A stretch of 64,000 bases of DNA from Deltaproteobacteria bacterium (lineage in GTDB: Bacteria; Desulfobacterota; Desulfobulbia; Desulfobulbales; SURF-16). The stretch covers positions 2,014-66,013 of the forward strand of contig DAOUUW010000001.1 in NCBI GenBank assembly GCA_030667965.1. The letters are read 5' to 3'. Shown here in pieces: positions 8,694-63,688 of the stretch (positions are counted from its first letter, which is position 1; every line of letters begins with the position of its first letter). Under the pieces are notes generated by a model. The model did no database searches. It was not told the DNA's origin and worked only from the letters and a program-made list of their open reading frames with translations. Position numbers and translations under genes: made by a program.

Positions 8694-9644
8694 TTATGAA
8701 GATGGCTGCTGCCGGAGTAAACGTATTCGACGAATAAGACTTGCCGCTACATGAAAGGGCTGAAAGGGCACAGGTTTTAAGCGCGAGGGGACAAGAAAAT
8801 CATCTACAGAAATTTCTGAAGGATGCAGTAGAGGGAAAACCAGGTCTGTAAAGCGGCAACCGGTCATATCCCGGCGCTCGGTTTCCCGCCATACCATACT
8901 TTGTTGGTGGTCGACCCCCAATAGCATTAACAGGGCCGTATCAAGCGCCACGGGATTTTCAGATCCCGCAACAACACCCAGGGGAAAAGGGTCACCATTC
9001 ACCGGGCCTTCCCTGTGCATGGCGCAAATACCATCAATAAATGTGAATCCGGCGGGGAGCACTGCCAGCAGATCAACCAGCATACGGGCAAAAAGATGCG
9101 GCTCCTTGCCGAGCTTCTGGTGAAGCAGAGCCTTGGTAAAACCCTTCACAGTGCCGAAATAATTTTTTACCGCCAAAGTAACCAGGGTTTGGGAATGGGC
9201 TTTCACCCTCGGTAAATTAATGAGCAAATCGCAGTCAAGGACCTGAGATGCCAGGGGAAGAGATTGCCCTCCTGCCAGAGTGACTTTTTCCCCCTTGCTG
9301 AAATGCACCTGTTTTACGGCCAGTCCCTTTAAGGCCCGGGATATACCACAGGTCTGCATAACAGCCGGAGCCCGACCAAAAGCAGGTGAATCCCCAATAA
9401 CAACTCCAGCTCCATGATCCAGACACCACTGGGCTGCTGCAGCTACAAATTCCGGATGACTGCAGGCAAGCCCTTTATGACCTCGCCCGGAAACAAGATT
9501 CGGTTTCAACAATACATTACTGCCAAAAGGCAAACGAAAAGAAGATGCAGCAGCGATTTGATCAAGCCCATCTTTAATTTTCGCCCGGTCATATTCCTGG
9601 CAGCGGACAAAACCCACCCCCGTTGAAGAAATGTGCATTTTCAA
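8694..9644 (-). CDS. DUF362 domain protein
   Basis: 316 aa. VLLKPNLVS...HPEFVAAAAQWCLDHGAGVVIGDSP is typical of DUF362 as I recall it. An alternative start is ATG 9638. Confidence 0.65.
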   Translation of the reverse strand: MKMHISSTGVGFVRCQEYDRAKIKDGLDQIAAASSFRLPFGSNVLLKPNLVSGRGHKGLACSHPEFVAAAAQWCLDHGAGVVIGDSPAFGRAPAVMQTCGISRALKGLAVKQVHFSKGEKVTLAGGQSLPLASQVLDCDLLINLPRVKAHSQTLVTLAVKNYFGTVKGFTKALLHQKLGKEPHLFARMLVDLLAVLPAGFTFIDGICAMHREGPVNGDPFPLGVVAGSENPVALDTALLMLLGVDHQQSMVWRETERRDMTGCRFTDLVFPLLHPSEISVDDFLVPSRLKPVPFQPFHVAASLIRRIRLLRQQPSS

Positions 9645-9656
9645 ACCCTATAAATA

Positions 9657-9694
9657 GAAAAAGGCCGATCTTGGGGGGACAAGACCAGCCTTTT
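9657..9694 (-). promoter_or_regulatory. Terminator-like hairpin in the 5' leader of the DUF362 gene
   Basis: GGCCGATCTTG / CAAGACCAGCC form 9 pairs with 2 mismatches and a 6-nt loop, flanked by an A-run and a T-run. On the minus strand the U-rich tail ends about 30 nt before ATG 9644. Confidence 0.35.
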
Positions 9695-9739
9695 TCAGGA
9701 GAAAGGAGATAAGAGTTGTTATCTTGTTGTTTTGTAATA

Positions 9740-9754
9740 GCAACATGTATGCCA
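9740..9754 (-). promoter_or_regulatory. Sigma-54 (-24/-12) promoter for the DUF362 operon
   Basis: The minus strand reads TGGCATACATGTTGC, matching TGGCAC-N5-TTGC with correct GG/GC spacing, about 95 nt upstream of the ATG. Confidence 0.55.
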
Positions 9755-9919
9755 ATGACAAAATAAAATTCATTTCCCTCCAAAACCATTGGTACATAAG
9801 GCTTCAGCGCTCTTCCCCCCGCAAAACTCGCCCCCATGGAAAGATACAATTTTTTAAACTTTATCCCTTTTCCAACTACTTCAAAAAAAATATCCTTTAA
9901 AAACAGCGCACTGGACGAA

Positions 9920-9935
9920 GTTCAATTTTTTGAAC
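9920..9935. promoter_or_regulatory. 16-bp palindrome GTTCAATTTTTTGAAC (candidate activator site)
   Basis: Perfect inverted repeat GTTCAA-N4-TTGAAC in the divergent DUF362/fliL spacer. Confidence 0.3.
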
Positions 9936-9993
9936 CATACCTTTTTTGCCCTTTCCGCCTACCAAAAAAGCTGTTTTCACCCGCCAAAAAGCA

Positions 9994-10010
9994 AAACACA
10001 GACTGTGTTT
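9994..10010. promoter_or_regulatory. 17-bp palindrome AAACACAG-A-CTGTGTTT (candidate activator site)
   Basis: Perfect 8+1+8 inverted repeat about 280 bp upstream of the fliL sigma-54 promoter. Confidence 0.3.
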
Positions 10011-10091
10011 ACATAAAAAATTCAATTTTTTTAATTTTCTCGGCAAATCAACACCCCCCTCTCTCATTTGTCAAATCAAGTCATCACTTTC

Positions 10092-10126
10092 CTCAATTCT
10101 CAATTCTCAATTCTCAATTCTCAATT
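10092..10126. repeat. Tandem heptamer (CTCAATT)x5
   Basis: Five perfect contiguous copies counted directly in the sequence. Confidence 0.95.
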
Positions 10127-10288
10127 CAACATGCTTCATTTTTTTGACTTTTACATCTTTAAAAGGTCAGAAAAATGACCCTGCCATTTGCACCTTCCGT
10201 ATTTTTAACTAACAAGGGGTAGTGCCCAGATGATAAACTCCTAAAAATAACAAAAGCTTATCTCTCATTGTACTAATCAATACAAATA

Positions 10289-10303
10289 TGGCATACTAAT
10301 TGC
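10289..10303 (+). promoter_or_regulatory. Sigma-54 (-24/-12) promoter for fliL and the downstream flagellar operon
   Basis: TGGCATACTAATTGC matches TGGCAC-N5-TTGC, 60 nt upstream of the fliL ATG. Confidence 0.65.
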
Positions 10304-10362
10304 CGTAGCCTTGTACAGATAAAACTAACAATAAACGACTTTTACCAGCAGGAGACATAATC

Positions 10363-10863
10363 ATGGCTGAAGATGATGCCAAAACAGCAGAAGATGGCGA
10401 AAAGCCCAAAAAGAAATCAAAAAAAATGCTTTTTATCATTTTTGGAGTCGCCATTCTCCTCCTTGGCGGCGGTGGTTTTTTTGCCTACACTACATTCCTG
10501 GCCCCAAAACCAATTCCAGATGAAAGCATACCCGGACTAGAGGCAAATCTACCCGAACCTGTGGGTGAAATTTTCACAATGAAACCCTTTGTGGTCAACC
10601 TGGCCGATCCGAAAGGAAAGCGCTATCTTAAAATGAAAATCAGCCTTGAACTTGAAACCGTCGAAGCAGTGGAAAGAACGCAGAAAATCGCTCCGAAACT
10701 CCGGGATATTGTCATCATGATGCTGACCAGCCTTACTTTTGAAGAGGTCATGACCCCTGAAGGCAAACTACAAATCCGGGATGAACTTCTGGAACGTTTT
10801 AAACTGGCAGCCCGGCCCGACAAAATTAAAAACATCTATTTTTCCGAGTTTGTCGTGCAGTAA
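10363..10863 (+). CDS. fliL: Flagellar basal-body-associated protein FliL
   Basis: 166 aa with a single N-terminal TM and the FliL core (FTMKPFVVNLADPKGKRYLKMKISLE...IRDELLERF). First gene of the fli cluster. Confidence 0.85.
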   Translation: MAEDDAKTAEDGEKPKKKSKKMLFIIFGVAILLLGGGGFFAYTTFLAPKPIPDESIPGLEANLPEPVGEIFTMKPFVVNLADPKGKRYLKMKISLELETVEAVERTQKIAPKLRDIVIMMLTSLTFEEVMTPEGKLQIRDELLERFKLAARPDKIKNIYFSEFVVQ

Positions 10864-10988
10864 AACGAGCAACAACAGACGCAATTTTAAGAGGATTCGC
10901 ACCTTTTCCCTCTTTACCTTAATTGAAACGGAACTATTCAGGTGATTATTTTGATTCATTTAACTTTGATACGTCTGCTAATGCCCTA

Positions 10989-11167
10989 GGCACAAAGGCA
11001 CAAAGGCACAATAGGCACAATAGGCACAATAGGCACAATAGGCACAATAGGCACAAAGGCACAAAGGCACAAAGGCACAAAGGCACAAAGTGACAAAGTG
11101 ACAAAGTGACAAAGTGACAAAGTGACAAAGTGACAAAGGCACAAAGTGACAAAGGCACAAAGTGACA
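10989..11167. repeat. Block-structured 8-9-bp tandem array (about 22 units) in the fliL-fliM spacer
   Basis: Counted order: GGCACAAA x2, GGCACAATA x5, GGCACAAA x5, GTGACAAA x6, then alternating GGCACAAA/GTGACAAA. Confidence 0.95.
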
Positions 11168-11230
11168 GATAAGCGAAGACTTCGAAGGCACTGAGTGAAG
11201 GTAATTTTCTATTAAGATATTTTCCTTAAA

Positions 11231-11280
11231 CTTTGTGCCTCTGTGCCTCCTGCCTTTGTGCCTGAATTTGGCACAATAGG
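11231..11280. repeat. Inverted copies of the array unit plus one direct copy
   Basis: CTTTGTGCC, TCTGTGCC, TCCTGCC and TTTGTGCC (11231-11262) are reverse complements of the GGCACAAAG-type units. GGCACAATAGG is direct at 11270-11280. Confidence 0.9.
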
Positions 11281-11353
11281 CGTTGGGAGTAAATCTGCTG
11301 CATCACCCGAAAAGTTACACCAATACAACCCTAAAAAAGCGTGAAATTTTCCA

Positions 11354-12343
11354 ATGGAACAGATTCTCAGTCAAGATGAAGTTGATGCCCTGTTAAAAGG
11401 GATCTCCGGGGGAGAAATTGAGGAACCCGAAGAACAGATCGTTGAAGATACTCTTGAATATTCAAAGTATGACTTCAGCCGGCAAGAACGAATTGTCCAG
11501 GTCAAGATGCCTGCCATGGAGGCCATCAATGATGTTTTTTTACGCTCCATCAGGCCGTCAATCGCAGGAACCCTTCGCCGCATTCTGGATATTACGGCAG
11601 TACCCATGGAACTGGAACGTTTCGGTGCGTTTGTCCGGACTCTTCCCGTACCCAGCAGCCTGCAGATTTTCAAGATGGATCCCTTCCGCGGTCACGCTCT
11701 TTTTGTTATTGAACCAAAACTGGTTTTTGCCTTTGTTGAAAGCTTTCTGGGAGGAACCGGCGCCAGAAACGTACGAATTGAAGGACGAGATTTTACCGGC
11801 ATAGAGCAGAAATTAATCGAGCGCATTGTCAACCTGCTGCTCAATGATCTGCAAAAGGCCTGGCACTCATTGTGTCCCATTAAGGTTCATCATGTGCGCA
11901 GCGAAATCAATCCGCAATTTGCCAAAATATGCGAGCCCGAAGAAGTGGTCATCATCAATCGGTACGAGGTTGACATGGACAAAGCAGTGGGCAGCATTAC
12001 ATCCTGCATCCCCCTCAGCAACCTTGAATCCGTCAAACAAAAACTAATGACAGCCTTTACAAAAGATCAAAGCGAAGAAGACATGATCCTCAAACAGATT
12101 TTAACGGAAAACATCAAAAATATTCCCGTAGATATCAAGGTGAACCTTGGACAAACCACTCTGGCCGCCGGCGACATTCTCAGTCTGGAAAAAGGCGACA
12201 TTATCCAGCTCGACAAAAGAAAAGACGAACTGATGCCCTGTTTCATCAGTGGTGTCCGCAAATACATGGGATCCCCAGGGATCCACCGGGGCAATAAAGC
12301 TTTTTTAATTAAACGTAAGGTCTTTGATCAGGAAAAAGACTAA
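11354..12343 (+). CDS. fliM: Flagellar motor switch protein FliM
   Basis: 329 aa. The N-terminal LSQDEVDALL is the CheY-P binding motif, followed by the FliM middle domain and a C-terminal SpoA-like domain. Confidence 0.93.
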   Translation: MEQILSQDEVDALLKGISGGEIEEPEEQIVEDTLEYSKYDFSRQERIVQVKMPAMEAINDVFLRSIRPSIAGTLRRILDITAVPMELERFGAFVRTLPVPSSLQIFKMDPFRGHALFVIEPKLVFAFVESFLGGTGARNVRIEGRDFTGIEQKLIERIVNLLLNDLQKAWHSLCPIKVHHVRSEINPQFAKICEPEEVVIINRYEVDMDKAVGSITSCIPLSNLESVKQKLMTAFTKDQSEEDMILKQILTENIKNIPVDIKVNLGQTTLAAGDILSLEKGDIIQLDKRKDELMPCFISGVRKYMGSPGIHRGNKAFLIKRKVFDQEKD

Positions 12344-38554: not shown

Positions 38555-38587
38555 GCAAAGCAAAAAGCAAAAAGCAAAAAGCAGAAA
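38555..38587. repeat. Tandem heptamer GCAAAAA (about 4.5 units)
   Basis: GCAAA GCAAAAA GCAAAAA GCAAAAA GCAGAAA, counted directly. It lies in the pnp leader. Confidence 0.9.
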
Positions 38588-38607
38588 TAATAGCATTTCT
38601 TTCTAAC

Positions 38608-38640
38608 TTTTAATTTTTAATTTTTGAATTTTGAATTTTT
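38608..38640. repeat. Tandem heptamers TTTTAAT x2 and TTTTGAA x2
   Basis: Counted directly. T-tracts are phased every 7 bp. Confidence 0.9.
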
Positions 38641-62995: not shown

Positions 62996-63230
62996 TTGTT
63001 TGCTTTTCTTTTCTCAGCCAGGCTCAGGTGGTGATCGTTGATGCGGTCACCTTCCTTGCCACCGTATTCGAGACCCAGACGGTACCAGGGTGCAGAGGCA
63101 ACATCTTGGCCCCTGTCTTTACCCCATTTGACATTTGGTTTGTCACGCAGCACCCCAGCGCCTTTCTTGCCGACATCCGGCACAGAGAGGAAAGGTCGGA
63201 TGTTGAGCCGCACGCCGTCGTTAATATCGG

Positions 63231-63305
63231 GAGTAATTGGGAGTAATTGGGTCGGGAGTAATTGGGGTTGGAGTAATTGGGGAGGGAGTAATTGGGGTCA
63301 GAGTA
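63231..63305. repeat. Iteron-like array of GAGTAATTGG
   Basis: Five copies start at 63231, 63241, 63256, 63271 and 63286 (spacing 10, 15, 15, 15 bp). A degenerate sixth copy, GAGTAGAATT, starts at 63301. Confidence 0.9.
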
Positions 63306-63358
63306 GAATTAAATTCTGATCGGGGTCACGGCTTAATTTTACTCTGACCCCAATTACT
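63287..63358. repeat. 19-bp perfect inverted repeat flanking a 34-bp spacer
   Basis: AGTAATTGGGGTCAGAGTA (63287-63305) and TACTCTGACCCCAATTACT (63340-63358). The spacer contains the palindrome AGAATT-A-AATTCT. Confidence 0.9.
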
Positions 63359-63688
63359 TTTCTCCCTAATCTGAGTCCTGTTAATTTTTTAGTACGTATA
63401 CTGCACAGCAACATTAAAAGAGAATCAGGAAACATCTTCATATTTATAAAACTCCCTCATCTTGATCTTGCCAAAGCACACCTAAAAGCAGTAAGTTGTC
63501 TTCTTACAATTGAGAAATAAAAATTTTCCAGAAAAACCTGCCAATATCAACTTATCATGGCAAAAGGTCATGATAATCAATGGTTATGCAAAATCAGAAT
63601 TCCAGTATGATTGTTATGTACCTTGGATTGCCTATTAAAAAATATTCATACCAGCCGCTATGTGTTTGTGGCGGTAGAACGTGAGCAT

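Follow-up and report, generated by a model that had tools for sequence, protein, structure and literature searches.

Several kinds of short repeats and small inserts in bacterial genomes are reminiscent of the element that we describe here. The 23S rRNA genes of Leptospira and Coxiella contain intervening sequences with inverted repeats at their boundaries, and RNase III cuts these sequences out. Those intervening sequences that contain an open reading frame encode "S23p," a four-helix-bundle protein (PF05635). In Neisseria and Haemophilus, phase-variable contingency loci have simple-sequence repeats within an open reading frame or between promoter elements, and the number of units switches expression. 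The STRR repeats of cyanobacteria are intergenic arrays of heptamers. The TAACTGA direct repeats of Beggiatoaceae, Cyanobacteria, and Bacteroidetes are intergenic heptamer arrays as well, mostly with 2–6 copies, and the sets end a few nucleotides from a start codon, with inverted sets being very rare (1 of 170; PMC4679880).

Here, we describe a tandem array of 8–9 bp units, followed by inverted copies of the unit, between the flagellar genes fliL and fliM. (By the window, we mean the entire 64 kb stretch of DNA that was analyzed.) We propose, with moderate confidence, that this locus is a repeat-armed intergenic cassette without a gene: the array forms its 5' arm, which was expanded by slippage, and the inverted units form its 3' arm. 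Our main point, which was not in the initial annotation of this DNA, is that a widespread family of cassettes has these two arms as its signature.

The array and its inverted partner

The 5' arm is made of 22 contiguous direct units in ordered blocks and spans 182 bp (10989–11170; Table 1). Tandem Repeats Finder places the array at 10988–11162, with a period of 8, 21.2 copies, 94% matches, and a score of 207. No other repeat in the window scores as high; the runner-up scores 104. Reading the array unit by unit, together with the Tandem Repeats Finder result, gave exactly the block structure that the initial annotation had described, and the four inverted units and the additional direct unit that it placed downstream are indeed there (11231–11262 and 11270–11281). 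The spacer was also identified correctly: both flanking genes match the expected families, and the spacer between them is 490 bp (10864–11353). The array begins 125 nt past the stop codon of fliL and ends 184 nt before the start of fliM, which is followed by fliN, fliO, and fliP.

Table 1. Features of the fliL–fliM locus, with positions in the window.
Feature	Positions	Strand	Sequence or description
Sigma-54-type promoter-like motif	10289–10304	+	TGGCATACTAATTGCC; 59 nt upstream of the fliL start; GG and GC at canonical spacing
fliL	10363–10863	+	PF03748 (E = 1.1e-25)
5' arm, block 1	10989–11004	+	GGCACAAA x 2
5' arm, block 2	11005–11049	+	GGCACAATA x 5
5' arm, block 3	11050–11089	+	GGCACAAA x 5
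5' arm, block 4	11090–11137	+	GTGACAAA x 6
5' arm, block 5	11138–11170	+	GGCACAAA and GTGACAAA alternating, x 4; final unit GTGACAGAT
Core (loop)	11171–11230	+	About 60 bp (gap of 60–61 bp between the arms)
3' arm, four inverted units	11231–11262	+	Complementary to the array in several registers
Inverted unit 1	11231–11239		CTTTGTGCC
Inverted unit 2	11240–11247		TCTGTGCC
Inverted unit 3	11248–11254		TCCTGCC
Inverted unit 4	11255–11262		TTTGTGCC
Terminal direct unit	11270–11281	+	GGCACAATAGGC; second small hairpin by local pairing with 11248–11262
fliM	11354–12343	+	PF02154 (E = 9e-53); PF01052 (E = 6e-18)

The rest of the window contains a single GGCACAAA, a single GGCACAATA, and a single TTTGTGCC, so the clustering of the unit at the array is far beyond chance. 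This is the only GGCACAAA array in the 64 kb, and the other arrays in the window have different units. Within the core, there is one degenerate unit (GGCACTGA, 11187–11194). At the end of the core, a TAA (11227–11229) lies immediately 5' of ACTTTGTGCC, which resembles the stop codons of the cassette genes that we describe below. We checked for coding potential: the open reading frames across the array are just translations of the repeat (with a period of 8–9 nt, the reading frame is not kept across the array), and there is no open reading frame in the core. Reading by eye, we noticed no target-site duplication at the edges of the element.

The species was found in one sample only. A short-read assembly of that sample (Logan, SRR22839552, k = 31) encodes FliL and FliM proteins that are identical to those in the window, and it breaks at both edges of the array: one contig stops at about 11010 and another begins at 11174. 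This is how such an assembly is expected to behave at a genuine repeat. Since no homogeneous block is longer than 48 bp, larger k-mers can assemble the array unambiguously.

Homogeneous blocks of a single variant are what unit-by-unit slippage after point changes would produce, so the array probably did grow by slippage, as initially suggested. Stepwise slippage could also account for the entire locus as an ordinary minisatellite, with no function: a GGCACAAA-like seed expanded within an unconstrained spacer, the inverted units are a small palindrome (either pre-existing or from template switching), and any likeness to the arms of cassettes is coincidental. The window also contains short arrays with unrelated units (at 10092, 38557–38640, and 63227–63305), which shows that this genome is generally prone to short tandem repeats. 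We consider the minisatellite explanation to be somewhat unlikely, primarily because of the comparisons to relatives and to cassettes that are described below.

Some of these other repeats are worth describing. At 63227–63370 lies another element of this architecture, built from another unit. Its five direct GGGAGTAATTGGGG-type units lead into a hairpin of about 36 bp (MFE of -70 kcal/mol, z = -6.5), and an inverted unit forms the 3' arm of that hairpin. The element abuts a 79-amino-acid C-terminal fragment of the BREX methyltransferase PglX (63027–63227, minus strand; PADLOC PDLC02528, E = 9.5e-36, profile positions 1043–1120 of 1125), so this array lies at a gene-truncation junction. The arrays at 38557–38640 comprise the heptamers AAAATTC/AAAAATT and then four copies of GCTTTTT. 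They lie between two minus-strand genes that we take to be rpsO and pnp, from their leading residues. A long A/U stem is possible there, with a fold that is no better than those of shuffled sequences (z = -0.07). Finally, a perfect array of five CTCAATT units (10092–10127) precedes the sigma-54-type promoter of fliL by about 165–200 bp, within the gene-poor region of roughly 700 bp that separates a DUF362 gene from fliL. This is where sites for an enhancer-binding protein would be expected.

Transcription, pairing, and conservation

The array is likely to be transcribed. Seven relatives have an identical or near-identical sigma-54-type motif (TGGCATAnTAnTTGC) at the equivalent position upstream of fliL, and this conservation suggests that the motif at 10289–10304 is probably the promoter of a fliLMNOPQR transcript that would include the array. 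We scanned the spacer (10864–11353) for the sigma-54 pattern TGGCAC-N5-TTGC, with GG and GC 12 nt apart and up to two mismatches, and found no match; the array's units contain the GGCAC half only. Nor did scans of the spacer find sigma-28-like sites or terminator-like sites on the + strand. The only match from the promoter scan was a weak sigma-70-like site (9/12) at 10923–10952, upstream of the array. With no terminator and no sigma-54 or sigma-28 site in the spacer, it is plausible that the array is co-transcribed with fliL and fliM, in agreement with the proposal that it is part of a sigma-54-driven operon. (The bases before the fliM start, which are TTTCCAATG, or TCTCCATG in several relatives, include no obvious Shine-Dalgarno sequence.)

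If it is transcribed, the 3' arm is predicted to pair with the array in any of several registers. The best intermolecular duplex is between the 3' arm (36 nt) and the block of five GGCACAAA units, at -55 kcal/mol, with about 31 bp and two small internal loops. Other registers are predicted at -54, -50, and -48 kcal/mol. These predictions support the earlier idea of a register-variable hairpin, in which the inverted units could pair with many of the upstream units. The predicted local fold of 11120–11290 is more stable than all of 200 shuffled sequences (z = -3.3) and includes the small hairpin with the terminal direct unit, which competes with the longer pairing. For the entire spacer, the fold is only modestly better than for shuffled sequences (z = -1.75).

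Such a hairpin within an operon might be a dedicated cis-regulatory RNA. By this account, which is close to what the initial annotation had suggested for fliMN, slippage would change the number of units and thereby tune the translation of fliMNOPQR or the stability of the mRNA, much as at a contingency locus. The several pairing registers fit this account, as does the location of the array inside a probable sigma-54 operon with neither a terminator nor an internal promoter match. However, the end of the array is too far from the start of fliM for the hairpin to occlude the start region directly, and the array is neither within an open reading frame nor between promoter hexamers. A permissive Rfam search of 9500–12000 gave chance-level matches to eukaryotic families only; neither rRNA nor any other family was matched. 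Furthermore, near-identical strains with similar arrays (see below) show no change in copy number, although this comparison involves just two pairs and short arrays.

The array is also not conserved, which argues against a regulatory role. The initial annotation proposed comparing the locus across related genomes, and we compared it to 17 Desulfobulbaceae-type loci. In 14 related metagenome-assembled genomes (MAGs), whose FliM proteins are 82–87% identical to the window's, fliL is directly followed by fliM, with spacers of 48–167 bp. In the three next closest relatives, the spacers are 61–76 bp. None of the 17 spacers contains the array. (Among 5.8 billion proteins, the closest FliM, besides the source itself, is 87% identical.) The array is thus a lineage-specific insertion or expansion and not a conserved regulator, and any effect on FliM is expected to be incidental. 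Nothing that we found suggests an evolved role in controlling fliM. We conclude that the element is probably not a dedicated flagellar regulator, and we consider the cis-regulatory explanation to be quite unlikely.

The relatives also bear on the minisatellite explanation. The spacer in the window is about 400 bp longer than that of any relative, and the 182-bp array explains only part of the difference, which is more than a local expansion of the array would account for. We aligned the flanks of the element to the relatives' spacers to look for the insertion point. The only match was 9 nt long (GTAAATCTG, with one relative), which is suggestive but not significant. Neither the window nor the related loci contain a four-helix-bundle or GxxExxY gene of the kinds discussed in the next section, so no donor is visible.

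Arms of the same kind in other genomes

We scanned a metagenome collection for three tandem units of G[GT][CG]ACAAA (this octamer pattern only) and found at least 120 contigs with such arrays, with GC content of 27–67%. The contigs listed resemble the window in their arrays alone. Among the matches listed, the arrays are mostly intergenic and solo, have 3–11 units, and lie next to ordinary genes. These contigs also have many 7–9 bp arrays of other units, which suggests that they come from repeat-prone genomes. Two contigs have long AAACCCT arrays that resemble the telomeres of plants or algae, so part of the matches are probably eukaryotic. We also asked if solo arrays have a preferred strand relative to neighboring genes. 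Among the matches listed, 52 were on the same strand and 36 were on the opposite strand (p = 0.11), and we rejected this idea.

About one-eighth of the contigs among the matches listed have a second array nearby in inverted orientation. In 11 of the 12 close inverted pairs among these matches, the purine-rich arm comes first, as it does in the window. This non-random orientation argues against the minisatellite explanation. Six contigs (L018, L032, L063, L113, L133, and L053) have gene-less hairpins, with an array, a loop of 20–70 nt, and an inverted array. A cassette gene was found in only 2 of the 120 array-bearing contigs among the matches listed, and a first screen of the metagenome loci with jackhmmer found cassette genes at these two seed loci only. 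As most arrays of the GGCACARA type are solo and beside ordinary genes, which is what one would expect of minisatellites, an array by itself does not imply a cassette.

In the two seed loci, a direct GGCACARA array and an inverted array enclose a small gene. In L094, the gene belongs to PF05635/TIGR02436, the "23S rRNA intervening sequence protein" family of four-helix-bundle (bAvd-like) proteins. In L024, it is a GxxExxY gene (PF13366/TIGR04256). We then chose seven homologs of the L094 protein by the taxon and the size of the contig, blind to the flanking sequences (L140, L142, L143, L144, L146, L156, and L157). These are from Omnitrophica, Kiritimatiellae, Thermodesulfobacteriota, and other MAGs. 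All seven have a GGCACARA-type array just upstream of the gene, as does L094. And all eight have inverted TTTGTGCC-type arrays, of the form ACTTTGTGCC(T/C)TGTGCC, downstream of the gene, beginning anywhere from the stop codon itself to about 100 nt past it. In four of the eight loci (L094 and three of the homologs), the stop codon is joined directly to ACTTTGTGCC. Many homologs of the L094 protein sit on contigs of just 0.5–1.3 kb, which is consistent with assemblies breaking in such arms.

The window's element matches these cassettes closely. Its 5' arm is made of the same tandem GGCACARA units as in all eight loci. The purine-rich arm precedes the other, and the 3' arm, which is the inverted complement of the 5' units, has the same sequence as the 3' arms of L143 and L144. 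The junction TAA-ACTTTGTGCCTCTGTGCC is identical to the 3' junction of L144 at 18 of 18 nt. The element also lies in the spacer of a probable operon, as cassettes often do, and is absent from the 17 related loci. That the unit, the polarity of the arms, and the sequence of the 3' arm are the same as in eight of eight cassettes of one protein subfamily argues against a coincidental minisatellite. The length of the window's 5' arm is at the upper end among the loci that we compared; L143 has about 25 units in three blocks. In two pairs of near-identical strains with GGCACARA cassettes, the arrays are identical, so rapid change in copy number is not evident, at least for short arrays (n = 2). (At 1400–1540 of L156, which is from a Thermodesulfobacteriota MAG, there is also a 9-mer array of ten CCAACAAAC units just downstream of the four-helix-bundle cassette.)

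Where the window's element differs from these cassettes is in its cargo: instead of a PF05635 or PF13366 open reading frame, it has the 60-bp core. We considered that the core might be a relic of a four-helix-bundle gene, but we found no detectable signal (no match with nhmmer, and p of about 0.4 for Smith-Waterman alignment relative to shuffled sequences). This also fits the minisatellite explanation. Under the cassette explanation, which we prefer, the lack of an open reading frame or a relic implies that the window's element corresponds to the gene-less form only, as in the first five of the contigs with gene-less hairpins.

More distant four-helix-bundle genes have other short units around them. 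On plasmids of cultured cyanobacteria, the flanks are inverted in Nostoc (GTAGGGA/TCCCTAC), Geminocystis (AAGGGAA/TTCCCTT), and Picosynechococcus (GGAGATAA/TTATCTCC), and in direct orientation in Pseudanabaena (AAAAGCT and AAAAGCC). GxxExxY genes from Bacteroides, Bernardetia, and Gemmatirosa have CACAGAGG-like arms, which are a rotation of GGCACAGA, and one of these genes has a gene-less array hairpin alongside. Across eight loci on plasmids of cultured bacteria, the four-helix-bundle or GxxExxY genes are co-directional with the operons whose spacers they occupy: nrdB/nrdA, cas6/cas4, and cmr2/cmr3 (these three with cyanobacterial four-helix-bundle genes), fabD/fabG, and radA/FAD protein. Another cassette lies between sigma and anti-sigma genes. 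The short-unit arrays that flank the plasmid genes are mostly inverted. (In the eight plasmid loci, the upstream arms are purine-rich, with GAGG- or GGAG-like motifs that resemble Shine-Dalgarno sequences, and the downstream arms contain the complement.) Judging from these flanks, the repeat unit varies with the protein subfamily, and the architecture of the cassette is general.

We also considered that the 8-nt units might bind a protein and act as a sponge or decoy, either for a four-helix-bundle (Avd-like) protein that is encoded elsewhere or for sigma-54. CACARAGG is found around two unrelated families of cassette genes in several phyla, which exceeds what a stem would need, and GGCAC, which is present in 14 of the array's units, resembles the -24 element of sigma-54 promoters. 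However, the full sigma-54 pattern is absent from the spacer, and we rejected a sigma-54 decoy for this reason. Also, the period of 8–9 bp would make neighboring sites face different sides of the DNA helix, and the cyanobacterial four-helix-bundle genes have quite different units. CsrA- or Hfq-type sites were rejected from reading the sequence: the unit contains no GGA, which a CsrA-type site would have, and the array lacks A-R-N triplet periodicity. Overall, a protein-binding array seems very unlikely.

Returning to the cassette explanation, we propose that the family has the form 5'-(GGCACARA)n - cargo or short loop - (TYTGTGCC)m-3'. The cargo in other bacteria is a four-helix-bundle gene (TIGR02436/PF05635) or a GxxExxY gene (TIGR04256/PF13366), and some copies have just a short loop. 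The cargo looks like a small selfish gene. In the lineage of the window, and in this lineage only, an element would have entered, or arisen in, the fliL–fliM spacer. Its 5' arm would then have grown by replication slippage, giving homogeneous blocks of variant units. Transcription most likely starts at the sigma-54-type promoter that precedes fliL and includes the element in a fliL–fliMNOPQR mRNA. Once transcribed, the 3' arm would pair with the 5' arm, in any one of several registers, to form an imperfect duplex of about 31 bp. By analogy to ribosomal intervening sequences, this duplex is a candidate substrate for RNase III, or else a stability element, between the fliL and fliM cistrons. The effect on the output of FliM would probably be small and incidental, not an evolved control, so that the insertion would be nearly neutral.

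We speculate more broadly that hairpins with GGCACARA/TYTGTGCC arrays as arms, along with similar hairpins built from other units, make up a selfish family of intergenic elements and spread horizontally through the operon spacers of many phyla. Some members would carry a four-helix-bundle gene, and others a GxxExxY nuclease-like gene or no gene at all, and the stem formed by the arms might allow the element to be cut from the host's transcript, as in rRNA intervening sequences. This broader proposal is tentative, and we lean against it. If it is true, then the copy in the window is a member without cargo and divides the message of fliL from that of fliMNOPQR, and the family could account for some of the short tandem intergenic repeats of cyanobacteria and other bacteria that have lacked an explanation. 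To our knowledge, no transposase has been described for the repeat-armed cassettes.

As far as flagella are concerned, this element is probably a passenger. In practice, it interrupts short-read assemblies, and it may uncouple the expression of fliL from that of fliM in this one lineage. The wider interest is that four-helix-bundle and GxxExxY genes, which are abundant, uncharacterized, and annotated as "hypothetical," appear to travel with tandem-repeat arms, and that gene-less copies of these arms also exist. If confirmed, our proposal would give a concrete origin for some short tandem intergenic repeats, a testable model of RNA processing for how such genes can lie inside essential operons without harm, and a sequence signature for finding repeat-armed elements.

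Comparison with described elements

Short intergenic tandem arrays were already known, as were intervening sequences with a PF05635 protein and inverted termini. What appears to be new is the tandem-array arms around four-helix-bundle and GxxExxY genes: in the searchable library, our literature search found no paper with these repeat strings or with a description of such arms around these genes.

The 23S rRNA intervening sequences are similar to the window's element in that the inverted arms can form a long stem (in their case, around small cargo); in that the cargo family between identical arms elsewhere is PF05635; and, plausibly, in that the element lies inside a transcript and not between transcription units. 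They differ in that the window's element is located between protein-coding genes, in the spacer of an mRNA, instead of in helix 25 or 45 of 23S rRNA. Also, the window's arms are tandem arrays of 8–9 nt units, and there is no open reading frame between them.

Like the STRR and TAACTGA repeats, arrays of the window's type are intergenic tandem arrays of short units, with up to tens of copies, and their patchy phylogenetic distribution suggests horizontal spread. Unlike the TAACTGA repeats, the window's array has octamer units, lies 184 nt away from fliM, and is partnered by an inverted arm. As in contingency loci, a short tandem repeat that is prone to slippage adjoins a gene for a surface structure. 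But the window's array is non-coding and outside of any promoter elements (the sole, weak sigma-70-like match is upstream of it), and its 182-bp length and mixed units are atypical of contingency loci.

Finally, the window's element resembles MITEs and REP-type palindromes, as it is a gene-less intergenic insert that can form a hairpin. Its arms differ from theirs in being tandem arrays of unequal length, with 22 versus 4 units. By this comparison, the window's element would be to the gene-carrying cassettes as a MITE is to its parent transposon.
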